From the NCBI GenBank assembly GCA_964106915.2, contig OZ066919.1: a stretch of DNA of 64,000 nucleotides; one strand, 5' to 3'. The notes below the pieces were generated by a model that was not told the origin of the DNA, did no database searches, and saw only the letters and a program-made list of their open reading frames with translations. Shown here piece by piece: positions 2,711-51,200 of this stretch (positions are counted from its first letter, which is position 1; the number at the start of each line of letters is the position of its first letter). A program made the translations under genes and the position numbers. Source of the stretch: Podarcis gaigeae. Its lineage: Eukaryota.

Positions 2711-3964
2711 TTTCTTTTCTTTAATAGCTTTTAATAATTAAGTCTAGCTGAGAAGCTTTGATTGCATTATACACTTAGTGGGTTAATTAGAAACCTCTAA
2801 ATAAGTTGCAAACTGGTTCCTCCGGACTCGGCCCATTGGTCATTCCCCCAGCTAAAATGCTTGATTCTCTGGAGGGCTCGGGTTTGAGAATTGAATGGAA
2901 GTAATTGCTACCAATAAGTAAGACTACAAAGTTAAGTAATTTAATTTTGCCCCCTCCCTCTTCCCCAAACCCCCAGGAACAGCTGTGTAACACTATCAAT
3001 AAAAATCCCTTTAAAAGGTTAAGTGGGTGTTCTATTGGAAATGCTTAGAATCAGGGGAAATCCAGTAAAGATGTTTAGCAGAGTGATAAGGTTCTCATTG
3101 AATGAATGTTCTCCCTCACCCATCAAAGTCTTCTTTGTGATTGCTTGCATGTCTTCCATGTATACCCATGCAGCTAACTTTTCCTTCTTGGAGGGCTCTG
3201 CTTCCTCCCAAGAATGCTCGTCTCCCCTATTTGTATTATTGGCAGCACAAGAAGAGATATTTGCAAAGCAATGGGAGGTGGCTGGCTTTGGAGCCTGTCC
3301 TACTCATTGCTTATGATGATTAGCTAGTCAACTGAGATCTCACAAGGTTCTGCAGCATTTGTGAGATCTTGGCAGCTCCAATCTTGGGAGACCTGGGATT
3401 CTGGGTTTCCCTGGAGTCAGGGCATTCAAATGGGAGCAACAGCACCAGGTGGGAAGTTGTGTCATGGAAAGCCAGGACAAACCACCAAGCGGAGCAAGGA
3501 GCTAGGTAGCAATCACAACTCTCCCCTCCCCTGTTATTGCTCCCATTTTAACCAACATTATAGCAGTCAATTTCGGGGGGCGGGGGGCAGGGAATCAAAG
3601 TTGTGGCCATTTAGCTCCAGCACTCCTTAGCTGCCACATAGAAGATGCACATGAGAAAAAACTCCTCAACTCACTTCTCCACCTTGAAACCAGCAATGCT
3701 TTTGGCTCAATCTCCTTATCAATGAAGCATGCTCAAAGATTGGCTTTTATTAACTGACTCCTTGCTAGAGCTTTCTGCAAGTCCTGCTGAGCTGCAGGCA
3801 GTTTAAAGTTCCTTTAACTGTCAAGCTTATTGCGCCTACCTCTATGATCACAACTGCCTGCCAAGTTGCTTCTTTTAAATTGGCCACCTGTAATGAAGCC
3901 TGGGAGTTTAGTTGCCTTTCGTGCAGGGGATGTTTTCTTTTAAAAGGTAATCAGTTGTTGTTTT

Positions 3965-4130: not shown

Positions 4131-5136
4131 CATCTTAGCAGAATTCAAGTCAGTCCACTATCCATCCAGGTAACTGAACCTTTTTTTTTTTGCCAATTGT
4201 GTCAGGGTATTTTGCAGTTGATGGGCATTGATGTCCTAGCCTCAGCTCCCCCAGTGAATTGTATTATTGATAATACCTCATGAAGCCAATGCAGAGTACA
4301 GGGCAGGAATCATCACTCTTGCTCTGGATGGTTTAACACGTTCACCTTTCTCCATGCTCCCCACACTTCTGTTGGCACCTTGTGAAAGCTTTCACAAAAA
4401 GCTTTTCACTTTTCCATTCTATATTGGCTCTCTCTTAAGTCCCAAACTACCTACCATTTCATAATCACTCTACAATGCATCCAACTGCTCGCTCTCTCTG
4501 CTATCAATAACATCTGCTCTTGCTTAATTGTATCAGAACACCTGACAAATACTCCATTTCCTCAATCTCTCCTAATATTCCATTCCTAAGCCATGCTTGA
4601 ACTCTCCTTATTACATAGTAGGGACTGTTCCTTCCAGGCACTGCAGGAGATAATAAAAAAAATGAAGCGCTTGTAGTATTTTCATGCTGTTAAGCCCAAC
4701 ATGTTATTTTAGGCCAGGGTTTCTTAAAATTGGATGGCAGGTCCCCAAACTGCAACAATGAAAACAACAGCAATTGTTGCGTGTTGAGGTCCCCAATCCA
4801 CCCCCCAAAATAACTCACAACGGACACGTAATTTTTGTTTAAGATTTTTGGCATGATTTTGGCCACAACTTTATTAAAATACAAACTGTGAGTGGTTGTT
4901 TAGGCATTGGTTAAGACTATCTGTCCCCCCGCCTGGGGACAGAACTGACTTCCGGGCACCACCGAAAGACAGTGCGGGGGAAAGCAAGTCGGGGAAGAAT
5001 TGGAGCTGAGATACAGACCCTCAACTCTCACCCGCCTGCTCCCCGAAGGCTTGCCGGCCCTAGTCCCATTCCAGGGATTGGACGAAAAGATGGCAAGCCC
5101 CAGGATTCCTTTAACGGAATTCCCTTTCCGCAGCAA

Positions 5137-5208
5137 CCATGGAGGGGCAGGCCCAGCCTATCCTGAACCCCTCCATGGAGGGGTAGGCCCAGCCTATCCT
5201 AAACCCCT
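5137..5208. repeat. 36-bp tandem duplication inside copy A
   Basis: CCATGGAGGGG(C/T)AGGCCCAGCCTATCCT(G/A)AACCCCT x2 with 2 mismatches. Confidence 0.95.
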
Positions 5209-5271
5209 CCTCCACCAGATTTATAACCAATGCCTAACCACAACCTTACAAGTTGTGACGATTTGCTACGC

Positions 5272-5324
5272 AGTAGGCAAAAACCACCCAGCCAGCCAAT
5301 TTGCCAGGTGGAAAAATTCCTACC
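5272..5324 (-). ncRNA. Predicted ENE-like RNA element (U-rich internal loop between two helices), copy A
   Basis: Minus-strand RNA GGUAGG-AAUUUUU-CCACCUGGC-(AAAUUGGCUG)-GCUGGGUGG-UUUUUG-CCUACU. The layout matches the KSHV PAN ENE. Confidence 0.55.
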
Positions 5325-5653
5325 AGGCCCCTGCTCAAAGGCAGACAACCCCATGACAGGCATAGCAAGGTCAATGCAACAACCCCTTATTCTAGGGCGG
5401 GTGGGCGGGTGATCCGTTGCACGCAGCAAAAGAGAAAGTACAAGGCTGCGTGCAGAGTATTTAAACCTTTTACCCCTCCCACCAAAATTGCAACATAACT
5501 TTTGCCCCAGCAACTCGGCAATCCAATCAATGCCCCCTAGCCATCTTGGAGAACTTACCCAGCAACAAAGGGGTGGCTCAGTAGACCCCACCGCAACACG
5601 TGCTCTCCCTGAAGGAGAACACGCTTTGTCCTATATCTGCTGCATACAAAGAT

Positions 5654-5669
5654 CCAGCAGATGGCAGCA
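5654..5669 (+). promoter_or_regulatory. Candidate CTCF site
   Basis: CCAGCAGATGGCAGCA fits the CTCF core consensus CCASYAGRKGGCRS. Motif match only. Confidence 0.45.
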
Positions 5670-6825
5670 TGGAATGTTTTTGTGTGTTATATATTCCATT
5701 TTGTAAATAGATTTGATGCAGTGTTCAAAAGCATTTTCCTGAAATACAGCACTTTATCCAGAAGAAAGCTGAAAGTAAGCACAGATATCCTGATATCTTA
5801 TAGTTTTAAGTGACTTGGTTAAACATAAGGTGATCTAGTCCCATTGGAGTAAACTCCAATAGTTTTTGGCAAACACTGGGGTTTCCTTGCAATGGAAATT
5901 AGCTTTAAGTCCTTATAATTATATATGGATTACTATCTATGGGTTGGGCATGAGATAGATGGGTGGATGTGCTGCAGTTGGTGGACATCTGGCCCATAGG
6001 TCTTTAAAAGGATATTTCCCCCTTTGTTGTTTGGATTCAATGTCTGTGATACCAAACGCATCCCTATGCCATGTGATTTCTTTTTGTAGAAGCTGTAATA
6101 TCACTACTTTTTTGATAAGATTAGGGATATGGCTGGTATTTTGCTGGGTTCTAGACAAGGGGAAACTAGCATTTCCATGCGAAGGCAGTTGGGGTCCCTG
6201 TGCATCAGCCCTCATTGAAATCTTGCCACTTGCTATCCTTCATCACACAGAAAACACTAATAGTATTGCCGTGTCTCCACTTGCTCTTGCTTGTGAGATA
6301 TTAATGTGAAAGATAATATATTGGCCAGAATCAATACTTTTCCTGACTTAGTAAAGATCACCATCCATCAGTCCCTTCTTTCATTTGATAAAATCCTCTT
6401 ATGTCACTTTTACTTAGACTGATGAGATCACAGTGGCCCTTTTGTTTCATGATCAATGGAGCCAAGATGAAATATTGTCCTATAAATTAGCACCTCTGGA
6501 TCAAGACTATGAGATTCCCCCAATGGCTGCCAAGAGGACTCACCAAACATCATAATAAAGCACAGCACAGTCTAATGAGTTAATTAATTTAGAGCTGGAA
6601 TTTGCTGCACTAACACATGCTGGGAATTAGCAATATAATATCCAAACAATATACCATGAACTCTGTTTGGTGGTTCCTCAAGAATCTTGAGTCAAGATGT
6701 ACAGACTTTAGTCCAAATTATTCCTACACACAGAGGTCAACTAAATATGATGATGATGAAACACAGGTTACCAAATCAGTTTGTTTTCTCTCTCTTATAA
6801 TATGAAGGTAAAACCTAGAAGGCAT

Positions 6826-7662
6826 TTGCGTGGGCAGGCGGAGTCCCCCAAACCCTGGGTGGCCCCCGTGTGGAATAACGACACAATACAATGTGCTATG
6901 GGATTGAAATTGACCACACCTTTATTATGTTTCAGATGTGGGTAGATCTTGGCTCAGGCATTGGACGTTCATCCCTCCCAGTCCCCCGCCGGGGACCTGG
7001 GGAACATCAGGATTATTCAGTTTGTGGGGGGGATGGGCTGGCTCTGGAGAACATATGTTCAAGCAGAGAGAGCCCGCCCCCATTACGCCGTCATCACAGG
7101 GGAGAGCAATGACAACCTCTAGGTGTACGGCCAAAGCCTCCCCTCAAACAACCCCTTTAACAGGGAACCCTGGTATCGCCGCCACAAAGAGGAGGGGGGG
7201 CATGGGTCATTGCTGCATGCCCCCCCCCATTTAGGGAAGATAAACTAAAGGATTCTGCCCAAGGCCTGATACCACCAAAGTTGTGACGTTTTGCTATGGG
7301 AAAGGCAAACCTGCCAATGCAGGAAAATTCCATTCCGGCTCTTCAACAGCGACCTTGACCTAGCAGCGCCCGCGTACCTGTGGAGAAAAGGTTAACCTGC
7401 AAAAGAAGCCTTAACTGAGGGTGGGTAGGGTGGGAGAAGCTCTGGAGCCAACTGACAATTCCCAGGTAAGATCCTCCGCCTATTGTGTGGGCAGGTGTTC
7501 CCTCCCCCTACCTGGCCTGATCACCTTGGCAACGCCTCCACAGGTGGGATTGGGCAACTGGCTGAGGTAGGTGGAGACCTCCAGGTATCCCACCTGGGGA
7601 AGGCGAAGCCAAGCCTGTGCTAATGGTGCCTCATAGGGTCCAGGGGGCTGCGTGCGACCCCC
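6826..7662 (-). mobile_element. GC-rich LTR-like non-coding retroelement unit, copy B (diverged relative of copy A)
   Basis: Shares with copy A, in the same order: TTGCGTG end, CCACA(A/C)CTTTATT poly(A) signal block (AATAAA on minus at 6921-6926), AGGCATTGG, GTCCCC-CGCC-GGGGAC hairpin, CCTTTAAC, AAGTTGTGACG.TTTGCTA, AGGCAAA...GGAAAATTCC and GGGYGGG tracts. Right boundary approximate. Confidence 0.65.
7299..7336 (-). ncRNA. Predicted ENE-like RNA element, copy B
   Basis: Minus-strand RNA GGAAUGG-AAUUUU-CCUGC-(AUUG)-GCAGG-UUUG-CCUUUCC. The stem sequences differ from copy A but pairing is kept. Confidence 0.5.
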
Positions 7663-10600
7663 ATTTAATGTGGGGAGTGGTCATTGTAGCAGATATCTGT
7701 GGGGCGCTTAACCCACTAATTCTTTCTTGCAAAACTCACCCCAAATTTCTTTGCACTGATTACCCCTCAGTCAGACTCTGAAACTAGAAGTGAGTTCAGT
7801 TGGGGGGGGGGGGGAAGGAATTGTATTGGAGAGCAGATGGGGAGAAAATAATTGCAAGAAATAATTGACAGATCTGGAGGAGTTGAGTCACTGCCATCCA
7901 CTCAGAAGTGCTCTTGCCCAATCAACATGCAGTTAAGACTATGTTTTTGCTGAGCAAATGTCTAGTTTAAGTTTCAGTGCATTCCATAGCACATCCCACC
8001 AAAGGATATATTGGAAGCCAAAGAAGAGAAAGATGCTGCCTCTCAGCAGTGAATCGGGTGGGGGGTAGTGTTGCAGACACATGATGCTTCCACATACCAG
8101 CCCCAGCACTGTCCCTTCCTGTCCCTCTTGCTCAGTCCCTGAAGCACCCACCCTCCTGCCCTTGAATGGCAGTAGAGGTAAGAGGGGAAGATTTTTTTGT
8201 CTGTAGTCTTGTTGGCCATGGGAAACTTGGGTCCCCTTCCCACACTCTATTCTTTATATGGGGGAAGGCAGAGTAGTATGAGAGTGGTGAGCCCCCTGAG
8301 ACACCCATAGCATAGCTCTTGATGGGGAGGCTGCTGGCTGCCTCCCACCTCTGCCAGAACCTGCACAGTTTGAAATGGCTGCAGATCTCATTTAATAAAA
8401 TGGTGGCCCTAGTTATTCATTATCCATCTCTCTCCTCTTTCTTCTGGATATGGGAACAGTAGGGATCCTTCCAAAATCTGATTGGATATTTCCACCTGAT
8501 ATTACCTGCTCTTGATTCTCAGATTTGTGATGGCTTCTCGCCAAAATTATGCTAAAACAAATATTTCCGGGTAAATATGATCTGAATAGTTTCTATACAA
8601 GTGTGGCTGAACCCACATCCTTTGATGACTTCTCTAGAACAACTCTGGTTCATAGTGGGATTGTGTGTGTGTTATGGAAAACTGGAACTTGAACAAACTC
8701 TGCAGAATCAAAACCCAGGATTTAAATTTGGACTGCATTAGCACAAACAGCTGTAATCAAATGATTTTATATACAGTTACAACTGTAGTCACATATGTTT
8801 GGTCTGATTTTCAGAATTTTTTTCTGTGCAAAAATGCTAGCAATGAGCTAGTCTGGTATTTTCTAAAGTTTCCTAAAGTTCTGTACAAGTTTCATACTTT
8901 TAAAGTTACAGATAATTTCAGTGCAGCTAGCAGACACACACTTACACACCCACGTTGTGAGCTATTTGGTGAGAAGTAGTTATTGTGCATACAACAAATG
9001 CCAGAGGAAATTACAGAGCTCCTTCTTTTAAACATAGAAAATAACCTCAATCTCTTGAAGTGAGAAAGCAATAAATACAATGTGGCCCATAAAGTTGTAC
9101 ACCATAGGGTAAAGTACATCCTGAGAATAGATACCAATGGATGGATGCTGCTGTTTTCTAGCTAATATGCCCCTGTTGCATCATTTGCTGTTCAGTGACA
9201 TTGAAGTATCTTGAAACAACCAGCCTGGATTGAATGATGAATGATGCAGCGCAGCTCGAAGGTTCAGCTCTTTCTTTTTTTAGCCTGGCAATTTGGCAGG
9301 GATTTGTTCCAAACAAGTTTACCGCTGTTCCCAAAGTGCACCTGTCAGGGTTCAAGGTAAACAAAACTTTGCTGTTGATTCTTTTTGTACATAAACCACA
9401 GGACTTCACCTTCTTTCTGGCTACATAGCTGCCACTTCACTGTAGCAGAGGGCTAAGAGCTACAGAAACTTTGGTACCAAGAACTTTGAGCAAGGGTGCC
9501 CATGTAGCCAGGCATCCCAGCATGGAATGTTTGTCCCATCCCTGTCACTGCCCACACTGTGCCCTCCCTATCTGAGCTGCTGCCGCTGCCACAGATTGTG
9601 TGCCCAAATAAATCTAGGGACCCTATTCTTCAAGCATTACCAGAGCCCGTCACAGGGAAATATGCAACTGCTCCACTTCCATAATCAGGACTTTGTGTTC
9701 CTCGGCTGACAGCAAAGGAGGAGGTAAATAGCTGCTTATTGCTTGGCTTCTCATTCCTCTGAAAAAGAGATAGCGGTGAAGTGATGAGTTACACACCTGT
9801 CTTATTGAAGGTGAGAGCTTGTAGTGTGATTCTAACATTTTCTCCCTTTCTTATTCTGAAGGTTATTCTTGCAACTTTAATTGAGATGATATATTAATAG
9901 CTGAAATATCTTTCACATTTTTCAGTGGATTTTCCAGAGCCTATCATTATTAATGTGTCAACAGGTCTTCTCTTTCTCTTCAGCTCCAGATGGTGGCCTG
10001 AGGTATTTTTATTTTTATTACTTTAAAATTAGGTTGTTCATAAAATAATTATTATTAATAATAATGTTGACTCTTCCGTTAACACCACTGCTTCAAATAA
10101 ACTCAGCACCTTTCTTCCAATGTTGTTAATAAGGTAGCAGTGAAACTATAAGAATGAGGGGGCGGGCAGAATGCCTTGGTCTGTGTTGTCAGAATAAAGA
10201 AGGAGGTATCATACCCCCACCCAACTTTTTTATCCAAACTATTCTGGACTCATTGCCTCTTTACCCATACACAATGAAGTCAGGTTTAGATTAGGGATGT
10301 GTGATGGATTTCATTTCTGTGAATTCTGATGCAAACTACCATGATCCACTGATGTGCAGATTGAAACAAAATTATAATTTGGATTTTGAACATCTCCAAA
10401 TTGTGTGGTGCAATGCTTGGCTAAAGAATATATGTGCCAAAATGCATGCTTTAGGATACAACCTGTTTTAAAAGGTTTACACTGAGATAATGTGTACATT
10501 CCTTTAGTAGTGCACCTGGTGCCATTCTAGTACAGGCAACTCCCCATTCAAGTGGGGGTTACATTCCAGGTCTCCACACGCATAAACAAAACTCACATAA

Positions 10601-47222: not shown

Positions 47223-48065
47223 CCCTCCTGCTGGTGGACACGCATCTGCAGCAATAGCAGGCCTTTGTTTTTTTTACCATGTTTTACAATGTTAGTGGCT
47301 AAGAGTGCATCTTTTCTGATGATAATAACCTGGTTTGAGGAATTTCCTTTTAATCGTGGTTAATATTTATATTCCTCCCAACTCTTTTTGATACAGCTTG
47401 GGCACTTTCTGGAAAGAACGGAGCTCTGACATTAGGATTACTAGAGAGTAATTATATACAAATTATTATGCTATCCATAGTCATGTACGTGCTTATCTCT
47501 GGTTCTCAGATCTTGCTTCACTAAAAGGTGGATCAAAAGTCAAAGTGTTGCTTTGATTAAACCCATAATTAATCCTCGCTAGAAATCAGTTCCAAGGGCA
47601 ACCTTGTAAAACCCTAAGTAGCCTGTTTGTGATGCCTTATAGCAAAAAAAAAAAAAAAAAAAAGGGTCATGGAGATAACGCATGTGTGAAATGCTACCTT
47701 TGTTAAAATGATGAAAATCCACAGGGCATAAAGGGTACTGCTGATTTTAGAAAGGACTAAAACAGAAAGTGAGTGATTTTTTTAAAAAGTATTATATATA
47801 TATATGTGAGATTTTTAAAAACCGGAAAACATGTAGGTATATTACTCTTCAACACAAATCAAAATATCAAATAATCATTTTGAACAGAGAAATATTTTCT
47901 CTTCAAGTTTTATTTTTTTACGCTTGTAATAATTCAAGGCAAATTCTCTCTGTGTGTGTTTGGATTCTAATGGCAAAAAATATACCTTCAATGGAGTTGC
48001 ATATGCATGAATATGAATATTCATATGAATATTCTTTGCCTGGCTGTGTGGCATGAAGTCCGCTC

Positions 48066-48280
48066 CTTGCAAGTCCCTTTCCACCTGGCCTAGGGAGCGG
48101 GACACACACAATAGTCCTACTGAAGAGGCTCCTCTTGAGGCTAGAGGAACACCCCTCTGCTGTGGGGCATGAAGGCCAGTTACTTGCAAGGCCCTTTACA
48201 CCTGGCCTAGGGGGCGAGGCCCAGACTCACCCAGCCCTACTGAATCGGCTCCTCATGAGGCAGGAGGAACATTGCCCAGC
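48066..48280. repeat. Diverged 117-bp GC-rich tandem duplication
   Basis: Units start at 48066 and 48183: CTTGCAAG.CCCTTT.CACCTGGCCTAGGG...CCTACTGAA..GGCTCCTC.TGAGGC..GAGGAACA. Confidence 0.85.
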
Positions 48281-51200
48281 TATTGCTTTATTGCTTTAAT
48301 ATGCTGTAAACCACTTTGAGATTTTTATTTTTATTAAAAATATAAAGCTGTATAGAAATTTAAAAATAAACAAATAAATGCTTAAAATTTCCTCACAGTG
48401 TAAGGCACAGTGAAGTGTGTTGTGGTGACTGACTTGAGTAGGGTGGCTTAATTGTTTGTGGATTGTAATCTATCACAAGGGTGATAGATTACATTATTCT
48501 CAGGATACTTCTCAAACATTATGCCATCCACTCTTGAGTGTCTAGAAGTAAAGTCTTCAAAGGTATAAAGCCCTTGAGCTTAGATGATACCAAATCATCA
48601 GTGGCAGGGGAGGTTGCTGAGGGATGTATGGGCTTCAAGAAGATCTCTTCTGATTGTCAGTGATTTTTACCTTTCCAGAATACAAATGGTAAATATGTGA
48701 AACACAGCGACAAATCAATTTTTTCTTATTTTCAAGTGAAATTTCAAGCATTTTAAAACCACCCATTGATTACAATTAGGGCCAGATGTTGTTTTATGGA
48801 CTCAAAGAGATCAATACATAAATATTGCTTCATGATGTGAGGTGACATTGCAGTTCATGTCAGATCATTCAGATGATACTGAGCTGTATATGCCCTAACC
48901 TGAAACACATTACTCAGAAGTTAACCCCACTGATTTCACTGTAGTAAGTTTAATATGGTGGTCTATGTCAAATACATTGTGGAAATTTTATCTCTATGAA
49001 CGCACACAAATAGGAACACACACATATACCTGCAACTCAGAATTGTGTCTCTGTAATCAGGACTCAGTATACCTGCTTTGCCACTGGAAGTTCAGGAACA
49101 GCTTCCCTCTGCAAACCATTTAATGTGTGTGGAACTGTACTCCATTGAAATTCATCGTAGAATCAAATACACCATAGACTATAGTTCCTTTTCCCCACCT
49201 AGATGGGTGAGAACCAGCTTGACTTTAGAGTAGGCAAATTTGGCTTTCAGGAATCTGATGTACATACTGAGCATCTGTGTCCAAGTCCTGTGTATCTCTA
49301 GCCTAATTCTATTTAGCAGTTGAGAACTTTGACTATTTAATTTTGAGCTTTCGTATCATTGGGCAGGCAGTGTCGGGGTCCTGCAGAGGTACTGCCTTTG
49401 AGGGATGTTCAGGATTGGTAATTCTGCTTAGTTCTCACAAATATATGTGAGGCTGGACTGCTGCAATGTGACAATGGGTTCAATAAAACAGTGCCAACAT
49501 CTTCACATTAAACTGAAAGTGGGCGTCTGCAATGACAGAATTCTTGCTGAGGTCTGGGTTTCTAAGGAATATCACAAAGCTGCAGCCTTTTGAGTTTTTT
49601 CAAAATTGCTCTAAAATTAAGACTAGGAAGGAAGTGTGGGGAAAGAATACAGGCCTATACATTTTTGGAACTGAGCACTAAATCTTTCAGGGCAAATAAT
49701 GGATGCTGACAGTGCAAAGGCATTATTTGGTGCTGTTTGAAATTTGCCTGTCCTTGTTTTCCCACTCTGTGTCTCAGGGAGTTGAAAGCTATGAAAAGGC
49801 AATTACATTTGCTGAATGATTAGTGGGAGATGTGACATTTGTGTATGTCGAAAATGTTTAACTGCATTAACCTTTGCAAAATTTACACTGACACCTTAAA
49901 AATTATACATCTTGTGCGCCACTTGAAAAATCTGAAATGCCCTCCAATGTAAAGCTTATTTACATTTGCTTTTTTACAAAATAAATGGCCCTCATATTTG
50001 AAGAGAGTTTTGCCAGAAAGTTGAGAGTGCTGAAGCAAGGAAAGTCAAGTGTATGAAGGTGCTTGGTTGCCTCCCAATTGGAAAAGTGAAGTTGAAAAGC
50101 AAACAAAACCCGCACAGAATGCAAATTGCAAGAAGAAGACAAGTTCAAATACAAAATGCATAAGGTATTTAAGTCTCAAGGAAGCAGCTTGCAAACTTTT
50201 ATAGACCTTTACTTTAAAAAATAATAATACACAGGATGTCAGTAGATTTTCAAAATGTTTTCCCCAAATATATTCAAAGTGCAAACAGGCAATTAAAATA
50301 CTCTATGCCACTCTTCTTTTCATTGCCACTTCCCCCAGCATGCTCAGTTTCTGCTGGGACTGCTCACCTAACCAGGTTTCTTTCTTCTCTAAAGAGTCTT
50401 CCTCACTGGCGTCAATGTGAATGCTCAGCTGATTCAACTCCATGCCTCTTGTGCTTCACTCCACTGAAATCTGATTTGTTATGAGACAGACTCCGGTGGA
50501 ATGAAGGACAACAGAATCCATGGAACTTTCTTTGTGTACCTTGGTGACTGGGGCAAACAAACATGTCATGAGAAAAACAGTCAGTAGCAGACACAGGTTG
50601 AGTGAAAATTAACACTGGAAACAACATTAAAGGCAGTATTTGTACAGCTCTCCCCCCTCAACCTGATACCCCCCAGATGTTTTAGATGGAAACTCCCATC
50701 AGCTTGGCCAATGATCATGGATGATGCACATTTCTGCCCAAGGCTTCTGAAGGGCAGCAAGTTGGGGAAGATTTGTATCAGGCCCCCTTATTGTTTACTT
50801 AATATACTTTATGCTTGGATACCCCCCCCCATTTCAAACTATTCCTCCAGTACATCATCTTTTTGTTTAGCACACAGGGACATTGAAGAGGATTTGTTTT
50901 TCTCTGTATCCTCATCCTCTTTAGATTTATCCTTTTGTCATGAACTCTATCAGCAGGCAAGAAATTCTGAAGCACTTAAAGGATTATCCGTATGCTATCT
51001 TTGCAGCAGAGATCATTACAATATCTCTGGGAAAGCTTGCGGTTATTATTCATTTGTTGGACTTGTCGTCTAGTTTTGAGGATCAGATGCTTCACATCTG
51101 TGCATTTGTCCTCACATTTATAATAATTCAGAAATACCGACTTTTGAAATGGATGAACATCTGTAGGCAAATAGTTAGATAACACTTAGTATAAACAAGC

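Follow-up and report, generated by a model that had tools for sequence, protein, structure and literature searches.

Probable solo Ngaro units in Podarcis gaigeae with a predicted RNA fold and a candidate U-rich poly(A) clamp

The question raised by this locus is why two elements that can scarcely be aligned share the same colinear series of hairpins. The elements, termed A and B, lie on the minus strand of the window, which is the whole 64,000-nucleotide stretch of Podarcis gaigeae contig OZ066919.1 (GenBank assembly GCA_964106915.2) analyzed here. Judged from their sequence and that of their long relatives, both are almost certainly solo terminal units of Ngaro retrotransposons. The overall interpretation, which we consider likely, is that the modeled hairpins are cis-acting signals of the parent RNA, among them a U-rich loop that may clamp the poly(A) tail. 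The units and their parts were delimited as follows.

4777..5627, minus strand: element A, probable solo A-C-B terminal unit of a young Ngaro family, 851 bp, 100% identical to the A2-C-B2 end of long copy L061
5408..5627, minus strand: repeat A of element A, 220 bp, equivalent to A1/A2 of long copies (query 1-220 against the 5' ends of L073-L077, 98.6-99.5%)
5458..5465, minus strand: TATA-like box in element A, about 50 nt ahead of the end of repeat A, with a presumed promoter role
5240..5407, minus strand: spacer C of element A, 168 bp, between A2 and B2, once per full element
4777..5239, minus strand: repeat B of element A, 463 bp, equivalent to B1/B2 (a 463-bp, 100% direct repeat in L061)
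6826..7685, minus strand: element B, probable solo A-C-B unit belonging to a distant and older Ngaro family (A 7433-7685, C 7278-7432, B 6826-7277)

Parent elements and the assignment of the units

The limits of the elements were drawn from the flanks of genome copies. Element B was found to start at 7685 and not at 7662, the edge given in a preliminary description of the same DNA. That description had called the pair noncoding and barely alignable, which agrees with the longest Met-started open reading frames (ORFs; 88 amino acids in A, 73 in B) and with the best blastn pieces between A and B, 32 nt at 81% identity (E 1.7e-4) and 18 nt (E 0.026). Genome copies are 98.5-100% identical for element A (best 30 of 41 matches) and 88-91% identical for element B (best 30 of 40).

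The suggestion that A and B are solo terminal repeats is supported by longer copies of the kind then proposed as a check, encoding reverse transcriptase (RT), RNase H (RH) and tyrosine recombinase (YR) (L061, L119, L120, L125, L128). Full copies are ordered A1-gag-RT/RH-YR-SGNH-B1-A2-C-B2, and each window element corresponds to A-C-B. The last 851 bp of L061 are element A without a single difference; a 463-bp partial copy stands directly ahead of this whole unit, with ORFs for gag-CCCH, RT (E 6.8e-14), a YR of the phage-integrase type and GDSL/SGNH upstream. The A1 repeat of L061 was not seen because the 5' end of this copy falls in a 200-N assembly gap (L061:9425-9624). Complete copies with 99-100% identical repeats and long ORFs are L119, L120, L125 and L128, and among the 13 units listed, A measures 210-263 bp, C 155-191 bp and B 408-470 bp. 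Relatives of element B have the same layout: it is 78% identical to the A2-C-B2 end of L110-L113 and L116, and B-type parents share the A-type architecture, with 45% identity in YR and 65% in RT/RH. No full-length copy of window B's own subfamily was present among 7 exact junction matches.

The direct repeats of the parents are split (with spacer C in addition), and gag, RT/RNase H and a downstream YR lie on one strand, as in Ngaro. In Pfam comparisons, RVT_1 was above the cut-off in parent ORFs, as was Phage_integrase in L112 (E 1e-4 to 2e-3 in other parents), and RNase H matches were weak (E 0.005-0.03). All four ORFs following YR matched Lipase_GDSL or GDSL_2 (E 5e-7 to 0.02), each below the curated cut-off. 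It counts against the assignment that the YR and SGNH scores mostly lie under those cut-offs. Scans of 17 ORFs with the general Pfam profiles revealed no methyltransferase family, and a metagenome scan with the RT alignment for an outgroup from other species gave 597 pattern matches, none confirmed.

Related long elements were also observed. Ten (L118, L121, L122, L124, L126, L129; L081, L084, L086, L090) have broken internal ORFs and internal duplications together with terminal repeats that are 99.6-100% identical, and on account of this identity they are likely to be nonautonomous long elements copied recently. A third abundant family (L131, L133, L138, L141, L149) has the same spacer motif and loop with different A and B repeats. 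In the window (4777-7685), units belonging to different families are no more than 1.5 kb apart, and the same was seen at 4 of 58 other top-match loci (L004, L008, L013, L037).

Predicted RNA fold and the U-rich loop

The fold was derived from an alignment of the C-plus-B region of 15 representatives, chosen from the 11 clusters into which 89 extracted regions fell by identity. Of the 61 pairs predicted by RNAalifold, 21 had two-sided changes; the prediction recovered the long closing stem, both hairpins, the stems of the U-rich loop and a helix between spacer C and the poly(A) signal. For the 50 pairs that were scored, 95.6% of cells were paired and 17 pairs showed two-sided change, compared with 8.6 in shuffles (0 of 500 reaching 17) and 3-6 in slid controls. 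Minus-strand folding z-scores against 20 shuffles were strong for A (-6.6) and modest for B (-2.4). The modeled structure is thus very probably under selection, as the preliminary description supposed, and the hairpins go beyond what chance would give. Several points weigh against this conclusion: the rows were hand-picked and are related, 11 of the 61 pairs were dropped, and the fold was scored on the alignment from which it was derived. With the fold and its score drawn from one alignment of related rows, the covariation is taken as support and not as proof. The helices away from the loop are listed here.

4881..5256, minus strand: long stem that closes off the folded B domain, with arms at 5224-5256 and 4881-4913, an inverted repeat with two-sided changes in L134
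5137..5208, minus strand: G-rich/C-rich hairpin of A, its 36-bp unit doubled in part of the subfamily
7194..7226, minus strand: G-rich/C-rich hairpin of B
5105..5120, minus strand: GUUAAA-loop hairpin of A, 98.3% paired, two-sided change in 2 of 4 pairs
7152..7165, minus strand: GUUAAA-loop hairpin of B, weak in single-sequence folding (probability 0.0)
4923..4940, minus strand: GUCCCC/GGGGAC hairpin of A, ahead of the 3' arm of the closing stem (exact match and alignment fold)
6981..6996, minus strand: GUCCCC/GGGGAC hairpin of B (exact match)

The pair probability of the closing stem was 0.98-1.0 in 12 of the 15 representatives, and three B-type rows are misaligned there. An exact-match check returned the previously described motifs at the same positions (GTCCCC hairpin starting at 4923 and 6981; TTTAAC at 5110 and 7156; G-rich/C-rich arms of B at 7194 and 7216; TATA-like box at 5458). 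What had been said of the conservation of these motifs requires some qualification. The GTCCCC hairpin is kept in position but less so in sequence (79.8% of cells paired), and the G-rich/C-rich stem is indeed present in element B but is missing in its relative L116. The 36-bp duplication in A is real (94% identical) but represents a subfamily polymorphism, present in 47 of 70 copies and absent from 20. An AT-rich box occupies the TATA-like position in the 10 A-type long copies shown and is not evident in the B-type L116.

The loop of interest resembles an ENE (element for nuclear expression) and sits in spacer C, followed by a 10-mer complementary to the region of the poly(A) signal.

5273..5323, minus strand: ENE-like motif of A (GUAGG/CCUAC lower stem, AAUUUUU / UUUUUG internal loop, CCACC/GGUGG upper stem)
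7299..7336, minus strand: ENE-like motif of B (stems GGAAUGG/CCUUUCC and CCUGC/GCAGG, shorter U tract, one stem mismatch)
5250..5259, minus strand: C motif GUCACAACUU of A, a near-invariant 10-mer complementary to 4862-4871 (99.3% of cells paired, with 8 of the 10 pairs constant)
7278..7287, minus strand: C motif GUCACAACUU of B (exact match)
4862..4875, minus strand: AAUAAA (4870-4875) followed by the C-motif partner in A
6912..6926, minus strand: AAUAAA (6921-6926) and C-motif partner in B

Like the spacer, the loop occurs once per full element. Its stems change on both sides (the lower one in 4 of 7 pairs), yet U on either strand, the closing G-C pairs and a 3' purine are retained. A descriptor, itself built from these sequences, matched once in the 64-kb window, at element A, and not at all in 20 shuffles; it fits 12 of the 15 representatives, but not window B, an older, partly decayed copy with a mismatch in the lower stem. 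There are five U per strand in window A and three to four in other families, compared with about five U-A-U triples in PAN. The 10-mer lies 13 nt beyond the loop, and its complement consists of the final two bases of AAUAAA together with the next eight; AATAAA itself is invariant in all 15 rows. In the B1 context, from which C is absent, the segment ahead of AAUAAA has another predicted partner in both families, the surroundings of the SGNH stop codon, with letters that differ between the two. In 12 of the 14 long copies, no more than 8 of 200 shuffles matched this duplex.

These features suggest the following model. Transcription would start near the end of repeat A and could stop after either AAUAAA, so that spacer C would be present only in RNA reading through B1 to B2. 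In this B2-ended RNA the C 10-mer would pair just behind AAUAAA and the long stem would close the B domain, and because of both the poly(A) tail would begin next to the U-rich loop. Tail and loop could then form U-A-U triples, stabilizing the RNA that holds both sets of repeats and can be copied; by analogy, its tail may be protected as described for PAN and Evade (PMC7583470, PMC12501189). In B1, the sequence around the SGNH stop codon would take over the pairing with the segment ahead of AAUAAA. The hairpins are accordingly best read as signals of the parent RNA, and a stand-alone family of structured noncoding RNAs, the earlier proposal, was not supported.

For the proposal that the loop acts as an ENE triplex, the modeled evidence is evenly balanced. 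Against it, the U tracts shorten to three in the B-type, L130 and L134 families as opposed to five triples in PAN, the AA of the loop could pair with UU instead, and the ENE-like hairpin, folded by itself, does not surpass its shuffles (z -0.8 and -0.7). The tethering helix has weaknesses of its own: its pairs hardly vary, and covariation for that reason does not support it; a probability of 0.7 or more was reached in only 8 of 15 single folds, with 0.31 for window A and 0.0 for window B; and the helix takes in the final two A's of AAUAAA, so that processing in B2 could be impeded. The main alternative is a different role for the fold, in replication or packaging (dimerization, binding of Gag, strand transfer, priming or choice of the poly(A) site), with a loop that is no ENE. 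Covarying helices are mostly found in B and not near the loop, AAUAAA is flanked by different partners in the B1 and B2 contexts, and several families have short U tracts. This alternative was nevertheless judged somewhat unlikely, though a serious competitor, because the loop retains its U's, closing G-C pairs and 3' purine despite two-sided changes in the stems and adjoins the predicted tail.

Reads from four raw-read RNA runs, the organism of which may be another species, numbered 87-109 each, and nearly all fell on the terminal unit in both orientations. In these shallow data there was no pile-up of starts or ends, ORF depth was near zero, and the 0.6-kb minus-strand transcript predicted earlier was not seen. 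Neither element reached the gathering score in an Rfam scan. A module of the MALAT1 type, reported at anole loci (PMC10869381), was considered and set aside since the units end in AATAAA-bearing repeats and have no Rfam match. Elsewhere in the window, the sole Rfam match is a mir-205 precursor (50443-50516, minus strand, 92.5 bits), which, taken with the 1.5-Gb genome, indicates a vertebrate host, and a 117-bp tandem repeat lies at 48043-48271 (1.9 copies, 80% matches).

Integration and origin of the solo units

Both elements start and finish with AA, and the CACGCAA minus-strand ends noted previously were recovered as TTGCGTG at 4777 and 6826. Of 30 A copies and 26 B copies, 22 and 17, respectively, have an end-to-end duplication of exactly 2 nt. 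Insertions into other repeats were also compared; both ends were recognized in 45 of 70 copies, and after a self-match (L002) was dropped, three informative cases were left, in which the flank overlap was 2 nt twice and 1 nt once. In L023 the left end carries the target AT and the right end AA. These ends fit a crossover at a short core, as for DIRS elements (PMC7192593). Together with the YR of the parents, the AA core as the only sequence shared by the ends agrees with the earlier suggestion of tyrosine-recombinase integration without target duplication.

The B|A junctions were canonical in 36 of 36 exact A-type matches (32 and 4 from two sets) and in 5 of 7 B-type matches, and no circularly permuted insertion was found at the 36 junction loci (L100-L109, L126-L129, L160-L181). 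A full circle would hold two identical B|A junctions, and integration seems to use only the newly made one. Integration of mini-circles or symmetric circles was rejected because the permuted or tandem insertions that it predicts were absent at all 36 junctions. At L138:1140-1230, the A repeat of a solo unit meets some 45 nt similar to a B end at a junction of the usual kind, and neither B1 nor an ORF was recognized upstream; this may be an insertion into an older end.

The solo units probably arose by recombination between A1 and A2 of an integrated copy, which would leave A-C-B. The corresponding recombination between B1 and B2 would give A1-internal-B, and this product, with clean ends and without A2-C-B2, was found in 11 long copies (L073-L077, L079, L080, L082, L083, L085, L089). 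In the A subfamily, about 7 such copies stand against about 70 solos. The A repeats lie about 6.5 kb apart, compared with 0.4 kb for the B repeats, and the observed excess of solos, about 10:1, is close to what break-induced repair would produce with this roughly 16-fold greater distance. The 70 A-subfamily copies studied (30 top matches and 40 of 42 further exact matches) include one full-length copy, with B1 joined upstream; L013 was also flagged as long, but the nearby copy is separate and 67% identical.

An unlikely alternative to A1 x A2 recombination is that A-C-B units move by themselves as short nonautonomous elements, finished and integrated by the proteins of full-length copies, with either a structured 0.6-kb transcript of the A promoter or a small DNA circle containing the B|A junction as the intermediate. 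Such units would contain promoter, structure and poly(A) signal, and the same question has been raised for SIRE, the A2-B2 unit of VIPER (PMC6681497). Solos greatly outnumber long copies: a spacer-C 17-mer is matched exactly at 3,054 places in the genome, against 36 and 7 exact junction matches, the latter from narrower patterns that give no true ratio, and B1 or internal sequence was recognized upstream in none of the first 30 spacer matches by position. The alternative is opposed by the absence of cross-family chimeras at the predicted start or poly(A) site in the 70 copies, by the presence of the commonest solo variants in long copies as well, by the lack of permuted or tandem-solo insertions at 36 junctions, and by the existence of the B1 x B2 product, with repeat spacing that would account for the solo excess. 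These negative results do not exclude help from copies of the same family. Completion in trans by other families was rejected, as the 70 copies held no such chimeras; L182, L185, L191, L206 and L207 are truncated or interrupted. It is unlikely that vertebrate Ngaro elements carry, in a spacer confined to the A2-B2 interval, a working ENE and tethering helix that mark and protect the one replicable transcript and also let the 0.85-kb unit be copied nonautonomously. If they did, the thousands of A-C-B copies would amount to a portable promoter, RNA stabilizer and poly(A) signal in the host genome.

The weakest alternative, that the units are solo long terminal repeats (LTRs) of endogenous retroviruses or Gypsy elements or are unrelated sequences sharing motifs by chance, is suggested only by an LTR-like layout (TATA-like box, AATAAA) and low A-B similarity and has a negligible probability, being already refuted by parents that encode YR and have split direct repeats; the ends read AA...CACGCAA without a 4-6 bp duplication, and neither TG...CA ends nor a DDE integrase in the parent was found, so this class, which the preliminary description had left open, was not supported.

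Comparison with known systems

The element class and solo units are already known, and for this reason the surprise is limited. Amphibian-type Ngaro elements (DIRS order) are described as having split direct repeats in the order A1-ORFs-B1-A2-B2 and an SGNH hydrolase ORF (PMC9210276, PMC4157794). The present parents resemble them, as described in PMC9210276, in the split repeats and in gag, RT/RH, YR and SGNH in overlapping ORFs; the 17 scanned ORFs gave no methyltransferase match. They differ in the 155-191 nt spacer C with its ENE-like loop, neither a spacer nor an RNA structure being part of that description. In Cafeteria, Ngaro solo AB repeats have been reported (PMC8547959), and in Trypanosoma cruzi the SIRE sequence of VIPER is an A2-B2 unit with an exclusive middle piece of about 30 bp, the mobility of which is called open (PMC6681497). 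Both are like the present units in being isolated terminal units of A2 plus B2, whereas these have a vertebrate host, thousands of copies and a longer middle piece with a conserved predicted fold.

For DIRS-1, a tested replication cycle is described, and none was found in the sources consulted for split-repeat elements such as Ngaro. DIRS-1 has an internal complementary region (PMC7192593) from which spacer C differs in matching no more than 10 nt next to a poly(A) signal and not two outer ends; the core here is 2 nt, and the repeats are direct. A conserved, covarying fold that surrounds two poly(A) signals and includes a module found only in the B2-ended RNA offers targets for work on the choice and protection of genomic RNA.

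ENEs are described from KSHV (Kaposi's sarcoma-associated herpesvirus) PAN, from transposons of plants, fungi and slime molds and from stickleback retroviruses (PMC7583470), and Arabidopsis Evade is among the transposons with this stability element (PMC12501189, PMC13541005). A term search of a 2026 ENE review (PMC13541005) returned no mention of Ngaro, and no report joining Ngaro or DIRS to such a structure was found in the literature; primary ENE surveys, Repbase or Dfam may already hold the spacer or the ENE, and an RNA module in the Ngaro spacer is probably unreported. The modeled loop is like the ENEs of PAN, of plant and fungal transposons and of Evade in its U-rich internal loop, two stems and closing G-C pairs and in its predicted position near the 3' end of a transposon RNA. 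If it does act as an ENE, these elements would be extended to tyrosine-recombinase retrotransposons, with thousands in one vertebrate genome.

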